Shown: positions 5,578 through 43,440 of the stretch, piece after piece
Layout: the number at the start of each line of letters is the position of its first letter
How positions within the stretch are numbered: position 1 is the stretch's first letter
The notes under the pieces: generated by a model
What the model was told of the DNA's origin: nothing
Seen by the model: the letters and a program-made list of their open reading frames with translations, nothing else
The model's database searches: none
Assembly: GCF_003334255.1 (NCBI RefSeq)
Contig: NZ_QOWU01000048.1
Strand: one strand, 5' to 3'
DNA: 43,440 bases
From: Escherichia coli
GTDB lineage: Bacteria > Pseudomonadota > Gammaproteobacteria > Enterobacterales > Enterobacteriaceae
Translations under genes and position numbers: made by a program

Positions 5578-6161
5578 CGATGTTCCGGGGACTGCTGATC
5601 AGCCCCTGTTGTATTCAGCCATTCTCCGGTCATCTGCAGCAGTTTTCTGGCATCGTGGCTTCTGAGCAACGGAATACCAGCCTGCCTCAGAACCTCTTCC
5701 AGAAAAATATCCCGGCGTCTGCGTTCCGGTCGTAAATGTCTGGCATCATCCAGCTCTACTGCTGCAACAATACTGAACGAAAGCCGCTCAACGATAACCA
5801 CATCAACATGCCACTGAGACACCATCCTGAATAACTGCCACCACTGGCGTGATCGTGGCCGGATATTCCCGTTCAGCTGGACGATATCCGCGACCCGTAC
5901 CTGCGGACACAGATACCACCGCTTCATATCCACAATTCTGAACAGTCCTTTCATAAAACTGACTTCCCTTTCTGTCAGCAGCGTCTTCTGACGTTGCCAG
6001 TATTCACCGCCGGACAGTATTCGCTCTGCATCACCGGTCCGTATACCTGCCGCATGCAACTGCATCAGCAAAGGAGAATGCTGATTTACACTTCTGAGGA
6101 TAATCCGGATAAGTAACGCTGCAATAATCAGAACAATGAGAATAAAAATAATCAGCTTCAT
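5571..6161 (-). CDS. N-terminally membrane-anchored protein, probably DUF2726-type, 196 aa
   Basis: Hydrophobic N-terminus (MKLIIFILIVLIIAALLIRIIL) followed by a soluble domain. Occupies the position and has the size of the conserved IncF backbone gene next to the hha-like gene. Domain assignment is from memory, not motif-proven. Confidence 0.5.
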   Translation of the reverse strand: MKLIIFILIVLIIAALLIRIILRSVNQHSPLLMQLHAAGIRTGDAERILSGGEYWQRQKTLLTEREVSFMKGLFRIVDMKRWYLCPQVRVADIVQLNGNIRPRSRQWWQLFRMVSQWHVDVVIVERLSFSIVAAVELDDARHLRPERRRRDIFLEEVLRQAGIPLLRSHDARKLLQMTGEWLNTTGADQQSPEHRS

Positions 6162-6198
6162 TGTTTATCTGCTCCTGGTAATTAATTATGCTGAATTA

Positions 6199-6408
6199 TT
6201 ACCTTACATATTTCCATATCTCTTTTGGTATCCTGTCATATAACTTTCCGGTGATTAATTCCGCTAACCGGTGGTCTGCTGCTGAATTAAATGATTCACG
6301 TTCACTGGTTGATAAACTGTCTCTGTTTTTATGAATAATTTTTTCCAGCGTATTGACTGATGAACATCGCCGTAACTGATACAGCCATTCCTGTTTTGTT
6401 TTTGCCAT
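6199..6408 (-). CDS. Hha/YmoA-family expression modulator (RmoA-like), 69 aa
   Basis: ...[22 protein letters not shown]...[30 protein letters not shown] closely parallels Hha ([23 protein letters not shown]...[22 protein letters not shown]). Confidence 0.85.
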   Translation of the reverse strand: [69 protein letters not shown]

Positions 6409-7504: not shown

Positions 7505-8060
7505 GTTCATCAAGCACGGCCTGAAGTTCTGCCTTTATCCGGTTCTGGCGGCGGATTTTATCCAGACGCTCTGCCGCATACACTTCTTCCTCCTGAGAAA
7601 TATGCTCCGTCACATACCCTTCCGTGTCATACCGGCAGGCACCGGCTTTCATGGCACACAGATAGCTTTCTGAACGGGTGATGGCCTTCAGCGCCCTGCG
7701 CAGTTTTTTATGCGAGAGCGGGATATTCCGCTGCGCCACGTCTTCCAGTAACACGTCCCGGATACCGCAGGCCAGAAGTCGGGGTGTGTCACCGTCAAAT
7801 AATCCCGGCCACCAGGGTTTCAGGGTGTTCACGGCCTCATCCAGCGAGGGCAGGTTCAGATAAATGGACAGCGCCTGTCTGGCCTGCGCTTTTTTTGCTG
7901 TCAGCTCTGCTTCCCGGGCAGCCTTCTCCGCCAGTTTCTGCTTTTTCACCTTCCATTTTGGTGGCGTGGTGACATTGATGATGGTTTTCCGGCTCCGGGT
8001 CGGTGTTTCCCCTTCCGTTTTCCGTTTCAGTGTCAGTACCGGTCGTTTCTGCTCTGTCAT
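7500..8060 (-). CDS. finO: FinO fertility-inhibition RNA chaperone, 186 aa (intact)
   Basis: [25 protein letters not shown]... with a Lys/Arg-rich N-terminus matches FinO. Full length, with no IS interruption. Confidence 0.9.
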
Positions 8061-8162
8061 GATTGCCCTGACCTTTGTGAAAATATGTCCTCCAGGTCGT
8101 TGAAACTACTCACTATGATATTAAGCTGACCTCAACGACCTCTGACATATTAATACCGACAA

Positions 8163-9023
8163 TTAAAGATGTTTTTTAAACCATTGCGTCTGTACTGCCG
8201 CCACACGTTCAAAAAACGCGCCTTCATAAATATCATAATGGCATGCGTCAGCTTCCTCGTATAATTCCTTAGTACCAGAAGCAACAGCATCATATAAGGC
8301 TTTTCCCTGTTCTGGTGGATTAACACTATCCTGGCCGGCAATAACAATCAAAACTGGGCACTGTACTTTGGCTGCGCTCTCTGCCGGTTTATATTGCAAC
8401 GTCTCCATAACCGTAAGGAAAGGTATTTTTATATCCATTTCAGGATACTGACCTTTTACCTTCTCGAAGAATACCTTTGATTCATTATCACTCAGTACCC
8501 GGGTAACCCCCACAAACATCTCTTTCCCGGTGTTTTTCTTCTTCTCTGCCATTTTATTCAGCGTGGACAGAAAAGACGCTCTCTCCGATTCATTCATCTC
8601 TCCGGTAACCAGAACATCACCGTCAGCAAAAGCCAGCTGGCTGACAATACATTTTACGCGTTGGTCCTGCGCAGCTGCACTGAAGACATGCCCCCCTCCC
8701 AGCGATGTTCCCCATAACCCAATACGCTGATTATCAATACATTCCTGCTTTTCTGCCCAATTGATAACTGAAATAATATCTTCGGTCTGCATTGCAGGAA
8801 CCAGACGCCCTCGTTCTCCATCACTCTCACCGAATCCTCGATAATCAAAAGTAATCGTTGCGAATCCTGCTTCTGTGAAGGCATTCGCAAAGCAAGGGAG
8901 CAGAACATTCCTGATACCGCAAAACCCATGGCATAAGATAATCAAAGGATGTTTTATATTTCCTTCAGGAACACGAAATGTCAGGGCAATACCTTCAGAG
9001 AGTTTGTGATCCGTAATTTTCAT
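8163..9023 (-). CDS. Alpha/beta-hydrolase-fold protein (esterase/dienelactone-hydrolase-like), 286 aa
   Basis: Nucleophile elbow 'GLWGTSLGGG' (G-x-S-x-G), 'HGFCG' oxyanion region, and C-terminal Asp/His candidates. Sits between traX and finO, where F-like plasmids carry variable cargo. Confidence 0.75.
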   Translation of the reverse strand: MKITDHKLSEGIALTFRVPEGNIKHPLIILCHGFCGIRNVLLPCFANAFTEAGFATITFDYRGFGESDGERGRLVPAMQTEDIISVINWAEKQECIDNQRIGLWGTSLGGGHVFSAAAQDQRVKCIVSQLAFADGDVLVTGEMNESERASFLSTLNKMAEKKKNTGKEMFVGVTRVLSDNESKVFFEKVKGQYPEMDIKIPFLTVMETLQYKPAESAAKVQCPVLIVIAGQDSVNPPEQGKALYDAVASGTKELYEEADACHYDIYEGAFFERVAAVQTQWFKKHL

Positions 9024-9081
9024 AAATATCCTGTGTTATGTTGTTTATTAATAATCAGAATCAGCGTCAGTATCATACCAG

Positions 9082-9828
9082 TCACAACGCCAGAACGCCC
9101 AGCACAGCCAGATGACAGGCGTAGAATACCGGGAAAAAATCCCCGGGCCAGAAACGGGGTAATGATTTTCCTGCACACGACACCAGACCAACGGTCAGCA
9201 CCGTCATTACAAGACCGGCCACCGCCGCTGCATCACTGGAGGCAAGGTTAAGTGCCGGAATAACGGCCAGCAGGCATGCAAGCAGCGCCAGACGTTCCGC
9301 TCTGTCTTCCGCCCGGTACAGTCGGTAACTGACCGCCAGCATCAGCAGCCCGGCAATGCCGTAACTGGTGCCGGACAAAGGCCCCCACAGGGCCATCAGA
9401 AGAATGGCCGCTGCTGTACGCCACCCACTGCGCGTTTCACACCACGTCAGCACCTGTGCCGCCACTGCAAAGGCAAACAGGATATTCCCCTCATACCAGG
9501 GAAAGCCGGCCAGATAATATGCGAACTGGGCAATAATTCCCCATCCCCACAGCCGGTTAATGGCCGGTTGCCGGATATGCGCATGACGGGACAGATTCAG
9601 CCCCCACACCAGGGCAAACAGCGGAAAGGCTCCTCGCCCGGCCAGAAACATCCATTCCTGCTTCAGCTGGAATATCAGATTGATGTGGTCCAGTACCATC
9701 AGCACCAGCGCCACCGTTTTGATGATATCCCGCTGTCCGGGTGACCAGACCAGAAACGACTGCAACCAGGTATCGGTCCGTGCAGCCAGTGAATCGTTAC
9801 GTGTCGTGTTCGTGTTATCCGTTGTCAT
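9082..9828 (-). CDS. traX: TraX F-pilin N-acetylase, 248 aa
   Basis: MTTDNTNTTRNDSLAARTDTWLQSFLVWSPGQRD... polytopic membrane protein matching F TraX. Start trimmed to the ATG at 9828, just 3' of the traI stop. ORF-track start at 10293 overlaps traI and is rejected. Confidence 0.85.
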   Translation of the reverse strand: MTTDNTNTTRNDSLAARTDTWLQSFLVWSPGQRDIIKTVALVLMVLDHINLIFQLKQEWMFLAGRGAFPLFALVWGLNLSRHAHIRQPAINRLWGWGIIAQFAYYLAGFPWYEGNILFAFAVAAQVLTWCETRSGWRTAAAILLMALWGPLSGTSYGIAGLLMLAVSYRLYRAEDRAERLALLACLLAVIPALNLASSDAAAVAGLVMTVLTVGLVSCAGKSLPRFWPGDFFPVFYACHLAVLGVLAL

Positions 9829-9847: not shown

Positions 9848-12800
9848 TCAGTCTCCGCCCAGGGTTTTCTCTTTCTGCAGGTCACGAACCATATCCCGCT
9901 CCATCTGCTGCAGACGCTCCTGCAGCAGATTTTCCCGGGCAACCTCCCGGACCGCTTCCCGCTCCCGTTGTGATTCACGCAGCACACTCTCCGGCAGTGC
10001 GGTTTCCCGTTCAGATATGGCAGACCGGTCACGCTCCTGTCCGGCAATATCCCTGACAGCCAGCTCTGTTTTGCCGTCCGGCAGGTCAGGTTTGTTCTCT
10101 GCCATTTTCCTGACAATTTCATCTGCGCGGCGTTCCGTTTCACGGCGGATGGCCTCTTCAGCCTGCCGCTGTGCCAGTACCTCTGCCGTGACCGGTTCGC
10201 CATTTCCGGCACCCGGCTGGACGCTGTTGTCCGGGATATCCCCCCACACGCGGCCACCGGTGATGGCACCGGGATTCCACGGGCGACCTTCACCGGCGAT
10301 TCTTACCACCACACCACTGTCAGGATTATCACGGGCAATCCGGACGCCATCCTGCATATTATCAGCCAGCAGGCTCTCTCCGTTACGGCTGCCCTGCAGG
10401 GCCACGAACTGCGCATCCCCGCTGCCTTTCACCCGTCCTTCACCACTGAATCCCCGCAGCCCGTTTCCGTCATCCGTGGTCAGTGGGTTCAGCCAGATAC
10501 CAGCTGACTTGCCGTTACGGTCAAACGCCGGCAGTGCCACATGCGGCTGCGGATATTTACGTCCCGGTGCAATAAACCGTGCAGGGCTGTCTCCCCCGGC
10601 CAGCCCTGCCTGACGGAGAACGGCACGGCCTGCCGCCACGTCCCGCAGTTCCCGTGCCGTACTGAACAGCCGCTGCGCATTCATGACCTCCCGGTCCGGT
10701 TTCGGCTCCAGCACATCGTGGGCAGTTCCTTTCTGTACGGCATTGTTAATGGCATCCGTCCAGCCCTGACGGTTATCGGTGTACACCTGCACATGCTGCT
10801 TCATACGCGACAGGGCCACGTAGGCTGACTCAAAGCCGGCCATCAGTTTCCGGTTACCTTCCGTGCCTTCAAGCGCGATGGCAAAGGTTTCACTCGCCCC
10901 CTGCGCACCGTGGGCGGTGATGGCATAAGCCAGGTCAATATGTTGCTCTGCCCGCTCCTGGCCGGGGCGAATCACCCGGGTCTGCTGTCCGTCTGACAGC
11001 GTGACACTGTCACCGGAAACCGCTGTCACCGTCCAGACGCTGTTGGCCACATAACCGCGCTCCCGGTCACTCTTCGTGAAGCGCATCCGGTCGCCGGTCC
11101 CCACCCGGATTTTGTCCGGGGTGTACAGTGTGACACCTTCAGCCACCGCCTCCCGGGGCGAAATCAGCCGCGTGTTACCTTCCGCATCCTCCAGGGTTAT
11201 CAGCCCGTCATCCTTGCTGATACCGGCAATCCGGTGATACACACTATCCACCAGGGCAAGGGCATCCGGGTTATTCTCCCAGGTGGAGAGACGACGCAGC
11301 TCCCCGTCACGTATATTCGCTGTGTTCAGGACAGGCACCATGACCTGCTCTTTCCCCAGCTCACCGGCCTTTTCCCGTGCATCATGAATCATGCTGTTCA
11401 GTACGCGCCGGTCCTCATTCAGGTGCGTGACAATCAGCGTCTGCTCCCGTGCTTCCGGTGTCCTGCCGGTATAGTCGCGGACAATGGCTTCATACAGTGT
11501 CATGGGGACATCCGGAAAAGTCTCACCTTTCAGCATCGCCTTCTGCTGCGCTTCTGCCAGTTTCGCTTCCTGGCTGTGACTGAACTCCGTCACGGAGTGC
11601 TCCGGTGCCCATGCGCCCTCCTGACGGGGAACCTGAGACGGTTTCACACTCTCAAGCCCGGACAGTGCCCTTTCCACATCCCGGTTAATCAGGCTGTATA
11701 CCGCCTCCCGCAGTTCCGGCGTCTGACGCACAATCTCCTTCATGATGACCACATCGGCAGCACTGCGCGTCTGCTGGAGACGGAAAGGCTGACCGGGCGC
11801 GATGGCCTGCAGCTGGTCCGTGTCACCACTGGCCACGGCACGACCGCCACCGGCCGCAATCAGGGCGTATGCCCGTGCCATGTCGGTATTGCCCACCATT
11901 GAGCTCTCATCGAGCAGGAACAGCGTGTTGCTGAAATCCGGCGTTTCTCCGCTGCGCTGCTGCAGCTGCGTGTCATGCAGAAAGGACGCCAGCGTCTGTG
12001 CATCCACGCCGGCGCTGCGCATCTCACCGACCGCACGGTGCGTGGGCCCCAGCCCCACAACTCGGGGACGCTCACTCGCCGGCAGCATGTTCACGGCTGA
12101 CATCACCGCCCGGAACTGTGTGGTCTTACCCACCCCGGCATACCCCTGCACCACCGTGAAACGGTCGGACGTTTCCAGTATCATGCGGGTGGCGGCACGC
12201 TGTCCTGATGTCAGTTTCTCCATGAGTTCGCCAGGTACTCTCTCCATCAGCGGCGTGACCGCCTCCTTACCTTCGAGAATATGGCGAAGAATACTTTTTT
12301 CTGCCTCATACGACGCACGGGAAACCAGCAGGCCTGTGCCATAGCCTTTTGCCACATCCACATACAGTAAGTCACCGCGTTTTATCTGCGCATTGATTTC
12401 CCCTCCCAGTTCAGTAAAACCGGTTCCTTCTGCAGCAAACGACTTCGCCTCTGTCAGCAGGTCCACCATGCTGAAGGCCAGGTTTTTACTTTCCAGCACA
12501 GGAAGGGCCAGATGAATGGCCTGCTGTGCCGGCGTGTGCAGCCCGGTTTTCTGCAGACTGATAGCGGTTTCCAGCGATGTCTCACCGGCCCGCGCCTTTA
12601 TCTGCTCAGAAACCACCGTAAAGGAGGGATGGCGGGCAAGTTTTTCCGCAGTACGGGTTTCATCCAGTGAGGAATACAGCCGGACATCACGACCGCTGCG
12701 GGCCAGACCGTTCAGGGTGGCGTTGTCCATTGCCATCTGTGTGACGGAGGCAAACACCGTCGCACTGTCACTGACGGAATGCCCGGGCGTTTCCACCCAG

Positions 12801-18841: not shown

Positions 18842-21663
18842 AATGGCCCCTTCAATCGTTCTTTCTTATCATCCACCATCTGTTTTAACGCATCTTCAGA
18901 CGGTGTTGGCATTAATTTCTGTCGTTTATTTTCTTCATTATATCTGTTGTTTTGTTGAATTTCTTCCTGTTTGTGATTATTTTTTAACTCTGAATATTGT
19001 CTGTCTACAATATTTTCTTCGCCATGAATACTATTCTGAGTATCTCCGATATTCCCTTTATATTCTGTGACCATATTATCAACCTGATGTTTTACATCAT
19101 TACGGATATTACTGTCCTGCGTTCTTTGATCAATAATGGCCTGATGCCCCTGATGGTCAGCAATAATATCCTGGCTGCCACCACCCGAAGGTACGCTCTC
19201 CATTCCTTTACCAATATCCCCACGGGATTCACGCCAGGCATTATCAACACCAGGCTGCACCTGTTCCTGAACAAAAGACCATGCCATCGCCCGACGGCGT
19301 TCTGCAATCTCCGGTGAACTGGTGTTTGTCAGAATAGCTTCGGCATCCTGCGGTGCGTGTTTCATCACATACTGTGCAAACTGTTGCGACAAATCTTCGC
19401 TCATCTGCCCACTCATGCTTTCAGTACGGGATGCCATTTCAGCATATTCATGGCTGCGGGTCATATTCGTCGTGTACTGGTCGTAACTCTGTTTCGCTGA
19501 GTTCAGGGCTGCAGACAACTGGTCCACGCGGGAATCGGCATTATTGTCAGTATGGCTGCCGGATTCACTGACTTTGCGACTGGTAAAGTAATCGCTGGCC
19601 TCTTTAAAGTCCTTACTGGCTTTAGCATCGATATCATGGCGAGCATCATGGGTAGCCCTGCTGCCACTACTTGCTGAATGTGAGTCATCATCCGTTGCAT
19701 CCAGGCTCCCCTTAAATCCACCTCTGATGCCTACCCCACCACCAACACCAAGAATTTTAGGTTTAACCCCCCATTCAGCATGAGCATCAGCATACATTCC
19801 ACCAGATAGCCTGGTACTTGTTGATGCCAGTTCCTGAGTCGCCTGCTCATTACTGATATTATGCGCCTTCGCATAGCTTTCCACTGCACTGCGCATACGG
19901 CTGGCCATCATGGAGTCCTGAGCACTCATCGTGCTGTCAGCACCACCGGTGACAGAATCACTGCTCCCCCGGTTAGAACCAAACTGACTGAGCGTGTTCC
20001 AGGCACTGGCAATACTGCTGCTGAACCCATGCAGGGCACTTTCTGCTCTGTTCGATGCTTCCCGGGCCATTTCCTGTTGTGCCGCCGCAATCTGACGCGT
20101 TGCATTGATACCGACCGGTAAACGGGACATCGCCCCGCTCGCATCCATCACCATATTACCGTCACGGGTCTGTGTGGCGGTTGCGCCACTGCCGGTCTGG
20201 TACATCATCTGACCAAACGACGTGGTGCTGTTGGTGCTCCAGCTGAAGCCGTTAACGTTCTCCGTCTGCATGTTGCCGTAGGAGTAATTACCGTCAACCA
20301 CACTGCCTGCTGCACTGGCGGTCGGGCTGATAGCAGAGGAAGCGAAATGGCTGTACACACTGGAAAATCCTGCCCCGAGCCCCCTGACCATCATCCAGGA
20401 TAATGGCGGGATCATCATGGAAAGATACCCGGCAGTGGAAGCCAGATCGGAGTATTTCAGCTGTATCTGTGAAATTTCCGAGAGCACCACCGGTGCACCA
20501 TTCTGCTTTGCATAAAATGTCATGGCGCTGTTCAGAATGGCGTACAACATTGGCCATGACTGCAACCACATCAGGGCAAACACATAGCCTTTCAGGACGG
20601 ACAGCGTCAGTTTGTTGAAGACAGCCGCCAGTACCAGGAGCGGGAAAATACCGATGGCGATCCCCGTCAGGATGGTCTGCGTCATGGGCAGTGTCCGCAT
20701 CGCCACATGACCGATGGAGACATGTGCCAGACGTTGCTTCTCCATCGATGATGTGGTGGCCAGATTCACCAGGCTGGCCGAATCACCATTACGTGCGGCA
20801 TAACTGGTGATCCCCTCCTTCAGCGCATTGATGGTGACATTCTGGCGGATGATCTGGCTGGCTGATTTACTTGAGCCATAGAAGTAACTGTAACTGTCGC
20901 CAATCAGCGTACTGAACAACAGGTTCGGATCAGGGCGTCCACCAAATAGCTGCTGGGCATAATAATGCCATGTTTTTCCGCCACTCTGTGTGTCCAGATT
21001 CAGCTTGTCTTTCAGCGAAACCGACGCGTCCTTACAGGTCACGAAATTATTATTGCTGTCATAAACGCCCCGCAGCGGACTGGGGCGGGAAAAAATCAGC
21101 GTGTAAGGATCAGCGGAGGCCATCAGTTCCTCCAGCGTGTATTTGTGGTTCAGGTAAATATCCCCCATCACGCAGTTCTGCACATAATCCTGGAAAAGAT
21201 TGGCGATTTCCGGATTACGGGACAAAAAGTCGGTGCTTTTTGATACCAGTTCTGCGCCAAACAGCATCCCCGTTTTGCTGTAGGTGACACTGTCCGGTTG
21301 CGTGAAGATCATCTCGTAACTGGCCACCATTGCATGCCCGATACGGGTCGTCAGTGAAAGTGGCATCGCCAGTCCGACCGGCACATTATCCACCCGGTGA
21401 ACTTTGACCAGGTCACTGTTATCAATAATCTGCACCGATGTGCGGACATTAACCAGCAGGCTGATAAGCACAAACACGGCCACCCAGCCCAGCAAATCCA
21501 TCACGTTGTGCCGCTGTACCCACATTACGGCCACCGCGAGAACAGACAATGTGAGCGCAATTTTTTCAATGGAATCCCACGTCCGGGTCCCCATAAAAGC
21601 GGCAATGGCATTCAGGTTATTCCGCAACCACTCACCACCGGCAATCACATAAACTTCATTCAC
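18838..21663 (-). CDS. traG: TraG mating-pair stabilisation/pilus assembly/entry exclusion protein, 941 aa
   Basis: Size, N-terminal polytopic region and large periplasmic C-terminal domain match F TraG (938 aa). Syntenic with traH and traS. Confidence 0.9.
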   Translation of the reverse strand: MNEVYVIAGGEWLRNNLNAIAAFMGTRTWDSIEKIALTLSVLAVAVMWVQRHNVMDLLGWVAVFVLISLLVNVRTSVQIIDNSDLVKVHRVDNVPVGLAMPLSLTTRIGHAMVASYEMIFTQPDSVTYSKTGMLFGAELVSKSTDFLSRNPEIANLFQDYVQNCVMGDIYLNHKYTLEELMASADPYTLIFSRPSPLRGVYDSNNNFVTCKDASVSLKDKLNLDTQSGGKTWHYYAQQLFGGRPDPNLLFSTLIGDSYSYFYGSSKSASQIIRQNVTINALKEGITSYAARNGDSASLVNLATTSSMEKQRLAHVSIGHVAMRTLPMTQTILTGIAIGIFPLLVLAAVFNKLTLSVLKGYVFALMWLQSWPMLYAILNSAMTFYAKQNGAPVVLSEISQIQLKYSDLASTAGYLSMMIPPLSWMMVRGLGAGFSSVYSHFASSAISPTASAAGSVVDGNYSYGNMQTENVNGFSWSTNSTTSFGQMMYQTGSGATATQTRDGNMVMDASGAMSRLPVGINATRQIAAAQQEMAREASNRAESALHGFSSSIASAWNTLSQFGSNRGSSDSVTGGADSTMSAQDSMMASRMRSAVESYAKAHNISNEQATQELASTSTRLSGGMYADAHAEWGVKPKILGVGGGVGIRGGFKGSLDATDDDSHSASSGSRATHDARHDIDAKASKDFKEASDYFTSRKVSESGSHTDNNADSRVDQLSAALNSAKQSYDQYTTNMTRSHEYAEMASRTESMSGQMSEDLSQQFAQYVMKHAPQDAEAILTNTSSPEIAERRRAMAWSFVQEQVQPGVDNAWRESRGDIGKGMESVPSGGGSQDIIADHQGHQAIIDQRTQDSNIRNDVKHQVDNMVTEYKGNIGDTQNSIHGEENIVDRQYSELKNNHKQEEIQQNNRYNEENKRQKLMPTPSEDALKQMVDDKKERLKGPL

Positions 21664-24259: not shown

Positions 24260-24607
24260 TTAGCCTGTCATAAGCCCCCTTATAAAAAACCACATCACTC
24301 CGGACCATACTGATGACAACATAATACAGATAAATATTCTTCTGAACCCGTCGAAGCTCGTAACGTTCGGTAATGAGCCAATAACCATTGGAACAACCAT
24401 TGCTGCGCCCTGATTCATAATTGCACCACACAGAAACCAGAGACTGGCAGTCAGCACATATAAACACGCGATATTAATAACAAGGAAAACCAGTGAGCTC
24501 AGGAGAAACATTTTCCTGTCATTACGCTCAGAAAAGAAATAACCAGCAATAATGACAAATATTAACAGAACAACACCTGTAAACAGTTTCAAATAATCTT
24601 CACTCAT
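24260..24607 (-). CDS. trbA: TrbA small inner-membrane protein, 115 aa
   Basis: Syntenic between traF and traQ. Polytopic, AT-rich, same length as F TrbA. Confidence 0.7.
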   Translation of the reverse strand: MSEDYLKLFTGVVLLIFVIIAGYFFSERNDRKMFLLSSLVFLVINIACLYVLTASLWFLCGAIMNQGAAMVVPMVIGSLPNVTSFDGFRRIFICIMLSSVWSGVMWFFIRGLMTG

Positions 24608-24622
24608 AAATCAAATCCGCGA

Positions 24623-25366
24623 TTAAAAATTGGGTTTAAAATCTTCAGAAACGTTCAGGAACTGTTTTGCCAGGTCGTCCTGCGAAATAAAACCGTATGA
24701 TAACGGGCGAACACTGCCCTGTTTCGGGTCAACCAGCATCATGGCCGGGAAATATTTCACGCCGAGGCGCTGCGCCTGCCCCTGGTCAGTCCGGGAATCC
24801 GGCAACAGCGGATTAATCACGCCATCCACGGAAACGGGAATAACACTCAGACCATAGGTATCCCTGAAGCCATTAATGACCTGCGCCAGCTGCCCGTCGA
24901 TGGGGTCCTGCCCCCGGTAAAAGAACATGATGCCGTAGTGTTCAGCCAGTTTCGCAATGGCCTGTCGCTGCTGCACCTGGTCTGCCGCCAGCTGGTTCCG
25001 GACCGTGCCGTTGTAATGGCTGTACTGCAGGTTATAGTCCAGTTCGGGATGCGCCAGCATGGCTTTTTTGGCGCTCATGGTGAAAAGCCCGGCCTGCTGA
25101 GTCCAGTAATTTTGCAGCCGGAAATATTTCACAAAATTATCCACGCCGGGATACAGAATGGCTTCGTACAGCGCCCGCTTTGTTGCCGTCTGCAGTGCGG
25201 CCAGTTTCTGCATAATGTCCGGCTCCTGACGGGGGGCTGCAGGTACTGGTTTATTTTCTTTTTCCTTCGGATTTATTTTCTCGTTATACCACTGCCAGCC
25301 TGCATCTTTTCCTGACGCCGGAAAAATAAAGCAGCAGAGTAACAGTGGCAGTAATGCTTTATTCAT
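24623..25366 (-). CDS. traF: TraF periplasmic thioredoxin-like pilus assembly protein, 247 aa
   Basis: Start trimmed to MNKALLPLLLCCFIFPASG (signal peptide), giving the F TraF length. ORF-track start at 25396 is an over-extension. Confidence 0.85.
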   Translation of the reverse strand: MNKALLPLLLCCFIFPASGKDAGWQWYNEKINPKEKENKPVPAAPRQEPDIMQKLAALQTATKRALYEAILYPGVDNFVKYFRLQNYWTQQAGLFTMSAKKAMLAHPELDYNLQYSHYNGTVRNQLAADQVQQRQAIAKLAEHYGIMFFYRGQDPIDGQLAQVINGFRDTYGLSVIPVSVDGVINPLLPDSRTDQGQAQRLGVKYFPAMMLVDPKQGSVRPLSYGFISQDDLAKQFLNVSEDFKPNF

Positions 25367-27451: not shown

Positions 27452-28086
27452 TTCCCGGAATCTCCTTTCCCTGCCAGTAAATCATGAGCCACCTGCCGGC
27501 AGTCACCCGTGGCGGCCACTTTCTCCAGCGCCTGGCCGACCCGCAGGTTTCCCCGGATGATGTCGTATCCCTGACTGCAGAACACCACCAGTGCCGGTAC
27601 ACTGCGAATGCCGTACTGTGAAAACAGCGTCGGGTCGATCTGAACACCATCAGTCGCGCCGTCTTTCACCAGGGACAGCACGGCTTCAGCGGTGGTCTTC
27701 AGGTCATTGTTCACCATGCCCCGCAGTGTGGCGGGTATACCGTAGTGCCGGGTTTCGCCCAGCATCCGTTTCAGCCCCTCTTCGGGAATGGAAAACGACA
27801 CAAAATACAGGGCCCCCTGCCGGGGTTTCCCGTCCTGCGAAGCCTGCTGTTTACGAACCAGCTCATCCAGGAAATGGTTATCTGAACGCTGAAGGGGGTT
27901 CTCCAGCACCTGTTTCTCCGCCCAGGCCTTCAGCTGATGGTCAGGTTTTTCACGCAGTTGTCTGCTTAAATTTTCCTGCTGCTTCAGGAACTGGCGGTTT
28001 TCAGGAGTGTTCACATTGTCTGAGGCATGAACAGTGATATGCATTCCTGCAGTCAGGGCAAAAAGCGCAAATGTTTTCCAGTTCAT
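27448..28086 (-). CDS. trbC: TrbC periplasmic pilus assembly protein, 212 aa
   Basis: Start trimmed to MNWKTFALFALTAGMHITVHA (signal peptide), giving the F TrbC length. Overlaps the traN start. Confidence 0.85.
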   Translation of the reverse strand: MNWKTFALFALTAGMHITVHASDNVNTPENRQFLKQQENLSRQLREKPDHQLKAWAEKQVLENPLQRSDNHFLDELVRKQQASQDGKPRQGALYFVSFSIPEEGLKRMLGETRHYGIPATLRGMVNNDLKTTAEAVLSLVKDGATDGVQIDPTLFSQYGIRSVPALVVFCSQGYDIIRGNLRVGQALEKVAATGDCRQVAHDLLAGKGDSGK

Positions 28087-38918: not shown

Positions 38919-39278
38919 TCAGAGGCCAACGACGGCCATACCCACAGCAATAAATACAGAGATGATGGCAAAACCGGCCAGGAACTTGACGTTTTTGGTC
39001 ATCATGTACATGACCGCACCGACCAGAACTTCAGCCAGAACGACCCATTTAACAACACTGGAGTCCTTACCGAAGGTCGCCTTAACCGTGGTGTTACCGC
39101 TTGCCATCAGGTCCTGGCCCTGTGCTGCCATTGCCAGTTGCGGGAAGAACATCATCAGAACAGCAGCCGGGATCACAGCGCGAGCCAGGCGAAGCATATT
39201 CAGACGAGTGAATTTAGAAAAAAACGACTTCTTTTTGACGGGCGCAGAAGCACCCTGAACACTTAAAACGGCGTCCAT
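38919..39278 (-). CDS. traA: TraA propilin (F-type pilin precursor), 119 aa
   Basis: [51 protein letters not shown] | [33 protein letters not shown]... Long leader and mature pilin match F TraA, but the mature N-terminus is AQGQDL... rather than F-type AGSSGQDL... (a pilin serotype variant). Confidence 0.9.
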
Positions 39279-39311: not shown

Positions 39312-39539
39312 CTAAAGTTCTTTAAATGTTGACTCGCTCTCTTCGGTCACCTCCCTGAATATTTCTTCGTTATAGAAATCAGGAAATCGTTTCAGATGAT
39401 CTCTGAGACGGATCTGGACTTCTATCGTTTTACTTCTTCCACTACGATCTTTGGCCTTAATAAGTCGGTTATTTGTATCTTCATCGAGATACACCGAGAC
39501 CGTTCTGCTTATACCGCCTCTCGCGTTACGCCTCCTCAC
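39312..39539 (-). CDS. traY: TraY ribbon-helix-helix oriT-binding protein, 75 aa
   Basis: 75 aa, basic, R100-type TraY-like sequence (MRRRNARGGISRTVSVYLDEDTNNRLIKAKDRSGRSKTIEV...). Confidence 0.85.
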   Translation of the reverse strand: MRRRNARGGISRTVSVYLDEDTNNRLIKAKDRSGRSKTIEVQIRLRDHLKRFPDFYNEEIFREVTEESESTFKEL

Positions 39540-39632: not shown

Positions 39633-40319
39633 TTACTTAACGCTATAAAATTCACGAATTATATTTAATAGCGAATCTATTTCCCCTTTATAGATACATG
39701 ACACTCTGAATAAATCAAAGTGTTCAAAAAATTCTTTTATTTTCCGTTTAACTGGTTTAATTCGATCCTCAGATGCTCTGTCTGTAATACCCAATTCTCT
39801 GGCAATTGTTGCATGACCAACACCCAGCATATAAAAAGAGAAAACAAGCAATGTCCCGGGGGAAAGATCATTCCATATCGTTAATTTGTCAGAAGTATTT
39901 GTATTACTTCCACTCTGATTTAACGCAAAAAATGGATAATCAGGAAACGGATTAATTTGCCATAAAACAACAGATTCGTCATTATAAAAAGAAACATTCT
40001 CCATCCTTATCTGATAGATTTCGCCATGAAAATTAAAACGACGACAAAATGCAGAGCCATGTCCAAGAGCCTGGCATTCCAGTTCAAGTGATGAAAGAAA
40101 AATTTCAACCTGCAGACGTATATAACTCTCTCCGGATAAGGGTTTATCTTCTCTGGAAAAGAGTTCAATAAAAGCCCCATTGGCATAAAGGATTTTCCGG
40201 TTTTTGTTACGGACACAAACCGGAACGGGAGAATTTCTGTAGATATTCTGAACGTTAAGGATGTATTTATTTACAGATTGACTGTTAAGTGGCCTTTCTC
40301 TACGATCCAGCGCACACAT
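39633..40319 (-). CDS. traJ: TraJ transcriptional activator of the tra operon, about 228 aa
   Basis: Start trimmed to the ATG at 40319 ([14 protein letters not shown]...), which has a GGAGG RBS at 5-nt spacing. C-terminal helix-turn-helix-like segment '[20 protein letters not shown]'. ORF-track start at 40379 runs into the finP/leader region. Confidence 0.8.
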
Positions 40320-40395
40320 AGGAACCTCCGTTAAGGATTCTATGGACAGTCGATGCAGGGAGGTCTGAACTCCCTGCATCGGCGATTTTCAGTTT
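40320..40395 (+). ncRNA. finP: FinP antisense RNA (approximate), complementary to the traJ leader
   Basis: Plus-strand perfect hairpin CGATGCAGGGAG-gtctgaa-CTCCCTGCATCG at about 40350-40381, followed by GCGATTTTC. Overlies the traJ RBS region on the opposite strand. Ends not mapped. Confidence 0.45.
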
Positions 40396-40509
40396 CAATT
40401 TTTAACGTGGCATTAACCACGTAATTAATATACTAATTATCTGACGTATTGTCATCTTTTTGAATCATAAAAATTCTTATATTTGAACCAACTCAAACTT
40501 CATTTTCAT

Positions 40510-40893
40510 TTATTCATCATCATTTTTTGGAAAAAACCGGTCCATCTCAACAGACACTTTCTCTCTGATATCGTCAACCATACTGGCATATTCAAACTTC
40601 GGGTTTCCGGAGACATGAGGACTGAGAGACTCAATACCTAAAATCTTTGCCACCGTTGACTGTGTTTTTACAACACATTCAAGAAGAAGTTTATTAAACT
40701 CTGTCTGGTTAAACGCAGACTCTTTACGCTCCATCTGTACATCATATACGCGAAGCCCCAATTCAAGAAGCATTGAAGCAGTTCCTGAAAGGCTTATATC
40801 TTTATCTCTTGCTCCCTCCTGACGACGCTTTTCAACAATCATGTTAATTTTTTCATGAACCTCATTACTGATATACAGATTTACTCTGGCCAT
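40510..40893 (-). CDS. traM: TraM relaxosome accessory/oriT-binding protein, 127 aa
   Basis: MARVNLYISNEVHEKINMIVEKRRQEGARDKDISLSGTASMLLELGLRV... closely matches F TraM. Confidence 0.9.
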   Translation of the reverse strand: MARVNLYISNEVHEKINMIVEKRRQEGARDKDISLSGTASMLLELGLRVYDVQMERKESAFNQTEFNKLLLECVVKTQSTVAKILGIESLSPHVSGNPKFEYASMVDDIREKVSVEMDRFFPKNDDE

Positions 40894-41307
40894 AAGACAG
40901 TACCTTTTATATTCTGAAATAAGTGTTTTATTTCATTTACTCATAGTTTGGTCTGAAAAAAGAAGAGCACCCCTAGCAGCGCCCCTAGGGTCATACTATA
41001 AAAAAACGCACGGCGCTGCTAGGGGCGGCCCTAATATATCCAAATGTTTTTCATAAAATTTGTCAGTACTGACCCTAACAAGGGTCGCCATAGGGTCGCC
41101 ATAGGGTCGTCAACGACCCTATTTAATAATGTAAAATAAATTAAAATACATTATTTAAAACATAAGCTAATGATTCAAAAAGCAAATCATCAAAAACTTG
41201 TTTTTGCGTGGGGTGTGGTGCTTTTGGTGGTGAGAACCACCAACCTGTTGAGCCTTTTTGTGGAGTGGGTTAAATTATTTACGGATAAAGTCACCAGAGG
41301 TGGAAAA
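40894..41307 (+). other. oriT: oriT (origin of transfer) with F-type nic sequence; nick predicted on the plus strand at about 41216/41217
   Basis: TTTGCGTGGGGTGT|GGTGCTTTTGGTGGTGAGAACCACCAACCTGTTGAGCC at about 41203-41250 matches the F nic region. Upstream lie inverted repeats (CCCCTAGCAGCGCC ... GGCGCTGCTAGGGG) and an AGGGTCGCCAT direct-repeat/palindrome cluster (41070-41121) between nic and traM. Confidence 0.8.
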
Positions 41308-41817
41308 ATGAAAAAATGGATGTTAGCCATCTGCCTGATGTTTATAAATGAGATCTGCCAGGCCACTGATTGCTTTGATCTTGCAGGCCGGGATTACAAA
41401 ATAGATCCTGATTTACTGAGAGCAATATCATGGAAAGAATCCCGTTACCGGGTTAATGCCATCGGTATTAATCCGGTAACGGGATATGGCAGCGGACTGA
41501 TGCAGGTAGATTCCCAGCATTTTAACGAACTGGCCCGCTACGGAATTAAGCCAGAACATCTGACAACAGATCCCTGCATGAACATTTATACCGGTGCTTA
41601 TTATCTGGCAATAGCATTTAAAAAATGGGGCGTCACCTGGGAGGCCGTTGGTGCATACAATGCAGGATTCAGGAAATCCGAACGCCAGAACCAGAGACGT
41701 CTTGCCTACGCATCAGAGGTTTACCGGATTTATACCGGGATAAAAAGCAGTAAAGGTATCCGGCTTCCGGCCACGAAGAAATCACTTCCGGAAATTAACA
41801 GCGTGCAGAATAATTAA
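41308..41817 (+). CDS. Gene X / orf169 lytic transglycosylase-like protein, 169 aa
   Basis: Start trimmed to [19 protein letters not shown] (signal peptide), giving exactly 169 aa. 'ISWKESRY', 'GLMQV' and 'AYNAG' are soluble lytic transglycosylase motifs. ORF-track start at 41170 would span the nic site and is rejected. Confidence 0.85.
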
Positions 41818-42061
41818 TCTTACAGACATTGTCAGATACCGGTTATGCCGCAAAAGCAGCATGGAAGGCCACACACAAAAATATCATATGAGTGACAATA
41901 CTGACTGGCCGAAGCCCCGCGAAGCGGGAACCCATCTTATATATACCCGGTAACTGCGCAGCCTCCTGCCAGACCATTTTTCGCGGGCACAATATTTACA
42001 GACAACCGGAAAGCCGGTCGATGAAATTGAGGTATATCAGACGACACAGCAATGCCGAAAA

Positions 42062-42115
42062 ATGATAATATAAGTAAAGCCCCGAAAATTTTTTCGGGGC
42101 TTTACTTATATTATC
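42062..42115. terminator. Long perfect palindrome (about 25-bp arms), probable bidirectional terminator between convergent gene X and orf273
   Basis: GATAATATAAGTAAAGCCCCGAAAA tt TTTTCGGGGCTTTACTTATATTATC. GC-rich core stem flanked by A/T runs on both strands. Confidence 0.6.
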
Positions 42116-42935
42116 ATGACTTCCACTTTCTGAACTGTTCGGCAATCACCCATAACGCCTTGTTGATTCTTATATCACCATCAATACCTGTAATGGCTCT
42201 TGTCCTGGTATTTTTCCCGGAGGCACTTCGCCCCGATAATCCACCTTTTATCATATTCTCCTGAACCCGCTGCCAGGTTGTCCAGAGATCGTTCTGTTTG
42301 TCTTCCCGACGACGGGGAGTAATTATCTGTTCAGGTGTCACTGGCGTTTTATTTTCATCTTCATACCTGACCATCAGTGCAGCTCTGCCAAATAAATGTT
42401 GCTCGTCACTGTTAAGATGAATTTCTTTCATCGCCTCCATATTATCAGTGACCTTATCAAAGACACCGAGCACTTCATACGCTCCCTCGATAACCTGCCC
42501 GACAATATCACCTTTATGTGGAACGCGGATTTCGCCAAAATTATTTCCGCACACCAGGCCATTTGTGCAGACAAAACGAAAAATTCCGGGGATCATCTGA
42601 TAACTGGATGAACCATCATGTGAATTAAGCAGGATAATTTCAGGAACTTCCTGTCCGTTAATATGCCCTTCCCTGCGAAGACGTAACATATGTTTACTGT
42701 ATTCGCGACGTCCCAAATCACGAACCCGACTCTGACAGGCAAAGAATGGCTGGAAACCTTCATCACGTAACTTATTGATGATATTGATTGTTGGAATATA
42801 CGTATAACGTTCACTCCGGGACTCATGTTTATCACCGGAAAATACCGAAGGCACGAACTGCATTAATTCATCATCCGTTAAAGGACGTTCACGGCGGATG
42901 GAATTATACCGACCAAAACGGGAAGCTAATCGCAT
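42114..42935 (-). CDS. DUF932-family leading-region protein (F orf273-like), 273 aa
   Basis: Start trimmed to MRLASRFGRYNSIRRERPLTDDELMQF..., giving 273 aa. Position is the first leading-region gene after gene X, as in F. Family assignment is from memory. Confidence 0.65.
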   Translation of the reverse strand: MRLASRFGRYNSIRRERPLTDDELMQFVPSVFSGDKHESRSERYTYIPTINIINKLRDEGFQPFFACQSRVRDLGRREYSKHMLRLRREGHINGQEVPEIILLNSHDGSSSYQMIPGIFRFVCTNGLVCGNNFGEIRVPHKGDIVGQVIEGAYEVLGVFDKVTDNMEAMKEIHLNSDEQHLFGRAALMVRYEDENKTPVTPEQIITPRRREDKQNDLWTTWQRVQENMIKGGLSGRSASGKNTRTRAITGIDGDIRINKALWVIAEQFRKWKS

Positions 42936-43055
42936 AACAGCTACTCCTTTATGAAAGAATAAATTTAATAAAAAATTTTTCCGCTTAATATCATCCCCCC
43001 CCCGATCTCCATTAACAAGATTGCAACAATCAGGAGAGATATTCATCACATCCGG

Positions 43056-43343
43056 TCAGCAGATCGCCCGGATATCGAGGCCGGCACGCTTAATCTGACG
43101 CAGGAACTGTTTGAAGTGATCGACTTCCGCAATGTTGATATGGCGGAACTGCTTATCCACACCCTGACTGAGCGCGTAGCTATAACTGAAGGCCATCTTT
43201 TCCGGGTGGCTTTTGCGATATTTTTTCAGCTCAGTCAGGCTGCTGAATTCCAGGACGTCCCACTCTTCCCCGGTGTTTTTTTTCTTCCCGGCAACAAGAA
43301 GCGTGTACGACGCGGTGTTAACGTGGATATTTCGGGTACTCAT
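43056..43343 (-). CDS. Leading-region hypothetical protein (F orf95-like), 95 aa
   Basis: 95-aa ORF directly after orf273, matching the size and position of F leading-region orf95. Confidence 0.55.
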   Translation of the reverse strand: MSTRNIHVNTASYTLLVAGKKKNTGEEWDVLEFSSLTELKKYRKSHPEKMAFSYSYALSQGVDKQFRHINIAEVDHFKQFLRQIKRAGLDIRAIC

Positions 43344-43440
43344 CCTGCTTTCTCCTCTCTCTGGTTTTCAGCCCCCATCATCTGTTGAGTTTCGGGAGCC
43401 GCGGTTTTGACGTTTTGCGGGGACCTGCTCTTTGTTCCCT

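Follow-up and report, generated by a model that had tools for sequence, protein, structure and literature searches.

Results

A two-gene operon at the oriT end of an F-like plasmid

The sequence analyzed here, which we call the window, is a 43,440-nt stretch of Escherichia coli DNA (contig NZ_QOWU01000048.1) whose right end is the oriT region of an F-like plasmid (IncF, MOBF, MPF_F). Two minus-strand genes near this end form an operon. Its first gene, orf95 (43056-43343), encodes a 95-aa protein without a named family, starting at an ATG with a GGAG ribosome-binding site ~9 nt 5' of it. The distal gene, orf273 (42114-42935), encodes a 273-aa DUF932 protein, assigned from its Pfam match and from an AAGGAG positioned 8 nt ahead of the ATG at 42935; 273 aa is also the length given by the RefSeq annotation in identical plasmids. 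A mechanically called ORF that begins at a GTG and spans 42114-43049 (311 aa) is over-extended. Both ORFs are real, far beyond what chance would produce, and their outer limits, 42114-43343, are exactly those between which a first-pass annotation had placed a DUF932 protein and orf95, an assignment borne out by Pfam (E=2.8e-52) and by 99% and 97% identity to the proteins of F.

The genes are separated by a 120-nt spacer (42936-43055, minus strand) that carries the orf273 ribosome-binding site and, on the mRNA strand, a run of nine G residues (C9 at 42995-43003 on the plus strand). A promoter scan of this spacer returned no minus-strand promoter-like site. Directly 3' of the orf273 stop codon, between orf273 and the convergent gene orf169, a terminator scan identified an intrinsic terminator hairpin (42066-42113, minus strand) with a 20-bp stem followed by a T-run. 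An Rfam scan of 40400-43440 at permissive thresholds found no known RNA family; the sub-threshold matches in this region all fell on the terminator hairpin, and we set them aside as chance.

Compared with F (NC_002483), 271 of the 273 residues of the orf273 protein and 92 of the 95 residues of the orf95 protein are identical. The F record carries a 95-aa ORF at 64032-64319, a DUF932 gene at 64438-65259 and an SLT-domain gene at 65556-66158. From gene order, these coordinates and the kb-block naming of F genes, we infer that orf95 is ygeA, orf273 is ygeB and orf169 is ygfA; none of our search outputs gave these names to the ORFs. The spacer between orf95 and orf273 is 97% identical to that of F, with the differences clustered at the G-run, and the 296-nt convergent spacer between orf273 and orf169, which includes the terminator, is 98% identical. 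The 3-kb segment 40400-43440 is found in at least 5000 plasmid records; among the matches listed, which come mostly from Escherichia, Klebsiella, Salmonella and Shigella, 3885 have at least 80% cover. The oriT-proximal leading DNA of F is nearly unchanged in thousands of sequenced enterobacterial plasmids and is among the commonest pieces of DNA there. The locus has the canonical anatomy of the F plasmid, which is already known, and nothing in the locus itself is new. The F leading-region genes ygeA (orf95) and ygeB (orf273) were reportedly described by Loh et al. in 1989 and by Manwaring et al. in 1999.

The transferred strand is the template of both genes

An F-type oriT nic motif, GTGGGGTGT followed directly by GGTGCTTTTG, lies on the plus strand at 41208-41226 as an exact single match, placing the nick between 41216 and 41217. 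The motif occurs once in the window, and no occurrence is expected in shuffled sequence. Where exactly F TraI nicks is established, as is the 5'-to-3' polarity of transfer. The motif and its surroundings belong to the 35-bp stretch of F oriT with which Dostal et al. worked (PMC3074121), and that paper describes TraI as staying attached to the nicked strand at its 5' end. The plus-strand location of the motif identifies this strand as the transferred (T) strand and puts the leading region, which is the first DNA to enter the recipient, to the right of 41217. Leftward of the nick, on the minus strand, lie traM (40510-40893), traJ (39633-40379), traY (39312-39539) and traA (38919-39278), with the tra operon and an IncFII repA further left in the window. 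The motif and the leftward tra genes bear out the first-pass view that the pair marks the start of the leading region.

The operon is oriT-adjacent, on the opposite side of the nick from the tra operon, and lies beyond orf169 (gene X; 41308-41817, plus strand), which encodes an SLT-domain lytic transglycosylase (IagB-like NCBIfam match, 9.4e-33; transglycosylase PHROGs). A longer form of orf169, called mechanically and also in RefSeq, has 215 aa and starts at 41170, and would span nic. Counting from nic, orf273 and orf95 are the second and third genes: orf273 begins 898 nt from nic and the orf95 ATG lies 2127 nt from it, placing the pair at ~0.9-2.1 kb. The order of entry is orf169, orf273 with its 3' end first, orf95 and then the predicted promoter element Frpo1, so that both genes enter ahead of their own promoter, which is distal to the pair. 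Both orf95 and orf273, as minus-strand genes, are templated by the incoming single strand. For orf169, the transferred strand is the coding strand and not the template.

This arrangement agrees with work on F, in which ygfA is the gene nearest oriT and the first to be transferred, and is opposite in orientation to the other leading genes, so that it can be expressed only after conversion of single-stranded to double-stranded DNA (Couturier et al, 2023; PMC9849209). The earlier description of the pair as first-transferred genes is therefore only partly right, since orf169 is closer to nic than either of them and precedes both into the recipient. The two are better described as the nic-proximal genes templated by the transferred strand.

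A predicted single-strand promoter lies across the right end of the window

The window ends 97 nt upstream of orf95. These 97 nt (43344-43440, minus strand) hold the orf95 5' leader and, at 43364-43440, the first 77 nt of the Frpo1 (ssp1a) repeat, and the only part of the hairpin inside the window is the base of its left arm (~43407-43440). For sequence past 43440 we used plasmid pKFu019_2 (L002 in our set), which is 100% identical over the 3041-nt query. In pKFu019_2 a 300-nt repeat (18965-19264) starts at the equivalent of window position 43364, 21 nt upstream of the orf95 ATG. The repeat recurs upstream of ssb with 100% identity, and a third copy, 89% identical, lies further on.

When the ~300-330-nt element of pKFu019_2 was folded as single-stranded DNA, its transferred strand gave a single hairpin, long and imperfect (dG -93.6 kcal/mol, z = -9.0), and no shuffled sequence was as stable. 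The element aligns with the regions upstream of ygeA and ssb in F, which are Frpo1 and Frpo2 of Couturier et al. (PMC9849209) and were named ssp1a and ssp1b by Fraikin et al. (bioRxiv 10.64898/2026.01.09.698686). The promoter of the orf95-orf273 operon is thus a predicted Frpo1-type single-strand promoter, with the full hairpin seen in pKFu019_2.

Beyond the element upstream of orf95, pKFu019_2 continues with hok (flm), psiA (a 239-aa ORF), psiB, a gene for a 652-aa ParB-like protein, a DUF905 gene and ssb. After ssb come genes for a SAM methyltransferase, DUF3560 and DUF1380 proteins, a 141-aa protein annotated as an antirestriction protein, which we take to be a putative KlcA/ArdB-type protein, a DNA methylase and then parM. 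This continuation is a standard F-type leading region, as in F itself. The first-pass annotation was right that the region runs on past the window. Its suggestion to look to the right for ardA-, psiB- or ssb-type genes is answered in pKFu019_2 by psiB and ssb, with the putative KlcA/ArdB-type gene further on; no ardA is annotated in this stretch.

DUF932 is a broad family and orf95 a narrow one

The orf273 protein matches Pfam DUF932 (PF06067) over its full length (model positions 1-227 of 227) and also matches PHROG 12094 (5.9e-138). Against NCBIfam TIGR03299 (phage/plasmid-like protein) it gave a partial match of 19.5 bits, below the curated cut-off of 110.7, and TIGR03299 is only a distant sister family of DUF932. 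Among 66 diverse relatives of the orf273 protein (36-71% identity), all of which match Pfam DUF932, seven positions are invariant (P29, H82, C123, N125, H140, E226 and G231) and a further 21 are near-invariant, several of the latter being arginines. The conserved His, Cys, Asn, His and Glu residues and the near-invariant arginines would suit an enzyme that acts on nucleic acids or a protein that binds them.

The AF2 model of the orf273 protein is confident (pLDDT 89.7, pTM 0.85). No solved relative of this fold was found, a PDB profile search with the 66 DUF932 sequences giving zero matches, and the structural matches that were returned are weak and heterogeneous. In a BFVD fold search the named matches were DUF932, TIGR03299 and uncharacterized phage proteins, with the exception of one weak, low-TM match labeled putative alpha/beta hydrolase. 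A Pfam TraI_2_C match (E=0.33), which offered a lead towards a relaxase C-terminus, was reproduced in none of the 66 family members and was dropped. Several long DUF932 proteins were likewise treated as chimeras and set aside as uninformative about domain fusions: P0242 and P0243 have N-termini that by eye resemble Ag43 and GTPase fragments, P0004 is a concatenated duplicate, and P0271 was discarded with them.

The orf95 protein matched nothing in Pfam, NCBIfam, PHROGs or PADLOC, or in a PDB sequence search. Its relatives form 162 clusters at 90% identity among 5.8 billion, all on Enterobacterales plasmids, whereas DUF932 yields 5595 representative clusters at E values up to 0.001, two counts that come from differently built libraries. 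The orf95 family nonetheless keeps 12 invariant columns, including DHFKQF, down to 63% identity. Its AF2 model is mediocre (pLDDT 67.5) and a structure search with it returned no meaningful neighbor. These data suggest that orf95, which comes first in the Frpo1 unit, is lineage-restricted.

Neither protein matched the ArdA, ArdB/KlcA, PsiB or SSB profiles of Pfam and NCBIfam or any relevant PDB sequence, and neither matched a toxin-antitoxin or defense profile in PADLOC or Pfam. In the literature we found no functional study of DUF932, orf273, orf95, yfjQ, yafZ or UPF0380. The description of both proteins as poorly characterized therefore holds: profile, structure and literature searches assigned a function to neither.

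DUF932 recurs in plasmids, chromosomal islands and jumbo phages

We examined the gene neighborhoods of DUF932 and orf95 outside the F lineage. In F-like plasmids of Klebsiella (L017), DUF932 is the last gene templated by the transferred strand before the SLT gene and oriT; it sits directly behind a Frpo-like hairpin, without orf95. This element has Frpo-like blastn matches and a stable fold (dG -89.5, z = -6.8). In Enterobacter plasmids 4.4 kb separates orf95 from DUF932, which follows a different, 97-aa ORF, and each of the two genes stands behind its own copy of a repeat. The Enterobacter plasmid L004 carries four identical copies of this repeat (at least 300 nt), which folds more weakly (z = -3.7) and gave no blastn match to Frpo1. 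Pantoea plasmids have an orf95 homolog with no DUF932 gene within 6 kb.

DUF932 is also found outside plasmids. In chromosomal islands of Salmonella it lies directly upstream of an Antirestrict-domain gene, followed by RadC, DUF987, CbeA/CbtA, DUF5983 and DUF4942 genes. Jumbo myophages carry it at a distance of 2-20 kb from the genome's left end; in phage CBB it falls within the annotated 22-kb terminal repeat, with small ORFs of the same strand around it. More distant DUF932 representatives are on contigs of 1.5-2.9 kb, too short to provide neighborhood context.

Discussion

Early expression of the operon in F

Published work on F, which encodes proteins 97-99% identical to these two, bears out two further expectations of the first-pass annotation, namely early expression in recipients and an effect on plasmid establishment (PMC9849209, PMC12672017). 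In F matings, YgeA-sfGFP is visible before conversion of single-stranded to double-stranded DNA, is abolished by deletion of Frpo1, and is undetectable in vegetative donors; leading-region expression is transient and zygotic (PMC9849209). By RNA-seq of F matings, transcripts controlled by Frpo1 and Frpo2 are enriched in recipients (PMC12672017), and transcription from Frpo promoters also seeds complementary-strand synthesis (bioRxiv 10.64898/2026.01.09.698686).

Deletions in F have strong effects in the same experiments. The transconjugant frequency was 93% for wild-type F, 25% for the Frpo1 deletion, 33% (32.7%) for the Frpo1 ygeAB deletion, 14.5% for the Frpo1 ygeA double deletion and 3.9% for the ygeA deletion alone; a plasmid deleted for ygeB alone could never be obtained, and deletion of psiB, ssb or Frpo2 did not significantly change conjugation efficiency (PMC9849209). 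By these genetics, no other leading-region genes affect the yield of transconjugants as strongly as ygeA and ygeB. We note one oddity: losing ygeA is worse than losing Frpo1 and ygeA together, and a ygeB deletion is unobtainable, so a plain helper role may be too simple.

A model for the operon in plasmid establishment

It is very probable, taking the account below as a whole, that the interval is the ygeA (orf95)-ygeB (orf273, DUF932) operon of the IncF leading region. The plus strand enters the recipient 5' to 3', with orf95 and orf273 templated by it as a single strand. As published for F, RNA polymerase would start at the Frpo1 hairpin before the DNA has become double-stranded. YgeA would then be made within minutes and transiently, complementary-strand synthesis turning its production off, and the same transcript would be able to prime that synthesis, both steps again being taken from published F work. 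Transcription would end at the strong terminator after orf273. Loss of Frpo1 or ygeA would be expected, from the F data, to cut the number of transconjugants by a factor of several to over 20-fold.

The two proteins probably act in the establishment of the incoming plasmid. For DUF932, an anti-defense or DNA-entry role appears most likely, because the family recurs in DNA that is "first in": behind oriT-side hairpins, beside antirestriction genes in chromosomal islands, and within a jumbo-phage terminal repeat. We also put forward, tentatively and in the knowledge that it may well prove wrong, a broader proposal, in which DUF932 (YgeB) would represent an unrecognized class of entry or anti-defense factor of conjugative plasmids, integrated islands and jumbo phages, an enzyme or nucleic-acid binder whose fold lacks a solved relative and whose activity is dosage-sensitive, and orf95 would be its accessory in the enterobacterial F lineage. 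If this is true, DUF932 would be made from the very first DNA to enter the cell, and its dosage-sensitive activity would underlie the odd ygeA and ygeB genetics of F.

Alternative explanations

The proteins could instead act on the incoming strand itself, in priming, complementary-strand synthesis, recircularization or protection, and not on host defense. The operon is part of the Frpo1 unit, from which complementary-strand synthesis is primed as well, and the deletion defects appear even in isogenic laboratory matings, where few defense systems are in play (PMC9849209); DUF932 moreover has many conserved arginines and a His/Cys/His set. Yet the structural matches are weak and heterogeneous, and the sequences lend such a role no positive support, the TraI_2_C match having recurred in none of the 66 family members. 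The presence of DUF932 in dsDNA phages and antirestriction islands also fits anti-defense better, and we regard action on the strand as unlikely. The same deletion phenotypes might arise with no contribution from the proteins at all, if orf95 and orf273 were conserved passengers and the F deletions had disturbed Frpo1, the terminator or oriT-proximal DNA structure. These deletions do lie within 1-2 kb of oriT, deletion of Frpo1 alone already cuts transfer (PMC9849209), and the 296-nt convergent spacer with its terminator is 98% conserved with F. Strong conservation at the protein level argues against passengers, with seven invariant and 21 near-invariant positions in 66 DUF932 proteins and 12 invariant columns in orf95, as do the good ribosome-binding sites on both genes, the confident AF2 model of DUF932 and the fact that YgeA protein is actually produced (PMC9849209). 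We consider this explanation extremely improbable.

The F genetics also raise the idea of a mutually balancing, toxin-antitoxin-like pair, each member harmful alone, that polices or stabilizes the leading region and does not aid entry. Such a pair would account for a ygeA deletion (3.9%) that is worse than the Frpo1 ygeA (14.5%) or Frpo1 ygeAB (32.7%) deletions and for a ygeB single deletion that could not be constructed (PMC9849209), and the two genes are adjacent, co-transcribed and unequal in size. Against it, neither protein matches a toxin-antitoxin or defense family, and the pairing breaks down in Klebsiella (no orf95), Enterobacter (4.4 kb apart) and Pantoea (no DUF932 within 6 kb). The families also differ greatly in extent, 5595 representative clusters against 162, subject to the different construction of the two libraries, and both proteins are reported to be undetectable in vegetative donors, which would be unusual for an addiction module. 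A balancing pair is in our judgment quite improbable, somewhat more so than direct action on the strand. The reading we prefer remains a Frpo1-driven operon whose products would help the incoming plasmid to establish, with DUF932 in a likely anti-defense or DNA-entry role. The biochemical role of DUF932 is a question for the whole family and not for this locus, and its activity, once worked out, would fill a gap in how resistance plasmids establish.

Comparison with known systems

The leading region of F has the same order as the region described here together with its continuation in pKFu019_2: oriT, orf169, orf273, orf95, Frpo1, hok/flm, psiA and psiB, and on to ssb. The two differ only by point differences and by the run in the orf95-orf273 spacer, which is G9 here and AG6 in F. 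In pKFu019_2 the copy ahead of orf95 and the copy ahead of ssb share 100% identity across 300 nt, compared with 92% between Frpo1 and Frpo2 in F (PMC9849209).

Outside the F lineage, the closest comparison for orf273 is with chromosomal DUF932 proteins from Salmonella and others, which are ~67% identical, have 272 aa and belong to the same family. Their E. coli kin are presumably YfjQ and YafZ, of CP4-57/CP4-6-type islands. These chromosomal genes stand beside Antirestrict, RadC, DUF987 and CbeA/CbtA genes and, in contrast to orf273, have no adjoining oriT or Frpo element.

Single-strand promoters of the Frpo/ssi type were reportedly described by Masai and Arai in 1997, and ssi1-3 of ColIb-P9 are said to be of the same kind. 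Frpo-type elements are now placed in class 1 (PMC12672017). Class 1 promoters likewise consist of a long, imperfect transferred-strand hairpin that precedes leading genes templated by this strand and is repeated at ssb; the window differs in holding only the promoter-distal 77 nt, and the promoter here is predicted from sequence. With ArdA, ArdB/KlcA, PsiB and plasmid SSB, orf95 and orf273 share region, strand and promoter type, but not sequence or fold. They also part company in their genetics: deletion of ygeA or Frpo1 causes a strong defect in plain laboratory matings, unlike deletion of psiB, ssb or Frpo2 (PMC9849209).

Frpo-like and other repeats in F-like plasmids

Plasmid pKFu019_2 (L002), which is identical to the window over a 3-kb query, carries three Frpo-like copies (18945-19300, 24361-24696 and 27730-28049). 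The copies 5' of orf95 and 5' of ssb are 100% identical to one another over at least 300 nt, whereas 92% identity is reported for the corresponding copies in F (PMC9849209). This difference in sequence identity suggests recent gene conversion between the orf95 and ssb copies of L002. The third copy (89%) lies farther along the leading region, upstream of a DUF3560/methyltransferase block.

In an Enterobacter F-like plasmid (L004), we identified four 100% identical repeat copies of at least 300 nt, each followed by one ORF (313-585, 6001-6315, 9027-9401 and 10447-10740). All four ORFs begin with a common N-terminal tag of ~14-19 residues (MHTRNVNVKTAAQES...), are preceded by 40 identical nucleotides that include the ribosome-binding site, and diverge completely beyond the tag. 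The repeated module thus brings a ribosome-binding site and N-terminal codons to different cargo ORFs. In the window, orf95 starts with MSTRNIHVNTA (43311-43343), which corresponds to the L004 tag minus its middle segment. Module duplication could have produced this arrangement as a by-product; alternatively, it could serve as a functional translation leader.

Many clusters of orf95 homologues (P0163, P0166, P0144, P0147, P0151 and P0153 in alignment A1) are chimeric or locally frameshifted: several contain short out-of-frame stretches, one contains an SSB Pfam domain, and another an IS66 TnpB domain. Such irregularities would fit a region around the Frpo repeats that often recombines or acquires indels, but would equally fit errors in assembly.

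Gene boundaries and spacers

The spacer between orf95 and the DUF932 gene orf273 is 97% identical to F except at one variable spot, a C9 homopolymer (42995-43003; G9 on the mRNA strand) where F instead has AGGGGGG and neighboring substitutions. This tract is possibly prone to slippage. The 296-nt non-coding spacer between the convergent genes orf169 and orf273 (41818-42113) shows 98% identity to F and contains several GC-rich hairpins in addition to the terminator; an Rfam search of this spacer returned no family match.

Both mechanical ORF calling and RefSeq annotation of identical plasmids assign 215 amino acids to the SLT transglycosylase orf169 (41170-41817). Starting at 41170, this reading frame would cross the oriT nick site at 41216/41217, while the classical 169-residue gene X begins at an ATG at 41308 with a GGAGG-like site in front. 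The 215-residue call is probably an over-extension.

DUF932 genes outside the window

On the Salmonella enterica chromosome (L015/L016, 9001-14397), an Antirestrict (PF03230) gene directly adjoins a DUF932 gene (67% identical), and the pair is followed by RadC/JAB, DUF987, CbeA/CbtA, DUF5983 and DUF4942 genes, all part of an AlpA/YfjJ/GTPase island. The Klebsiella F-like plasmid L017 likewise has a DUF5983 gene (7855-8184) downstream of its DUF932 gene.

DUF932 homologues with 36-42% identity and >90% coverage are also encoded by jumbo myophages of ~355-378 kb (matches H57-H73), in every case at a distance of 2-20 kb from the left end of the genome. In Pectobacterium phage CBB, the homologue CBB_45 (L013, 5968-6855) lies among small hypothetical ORFs on the same strand, within the annotated 22.4-kb terminal 'redundant repeat'. 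This position looks like an early-entry region, which would parallel the position of DUF932 genes in plasmid leading regions.
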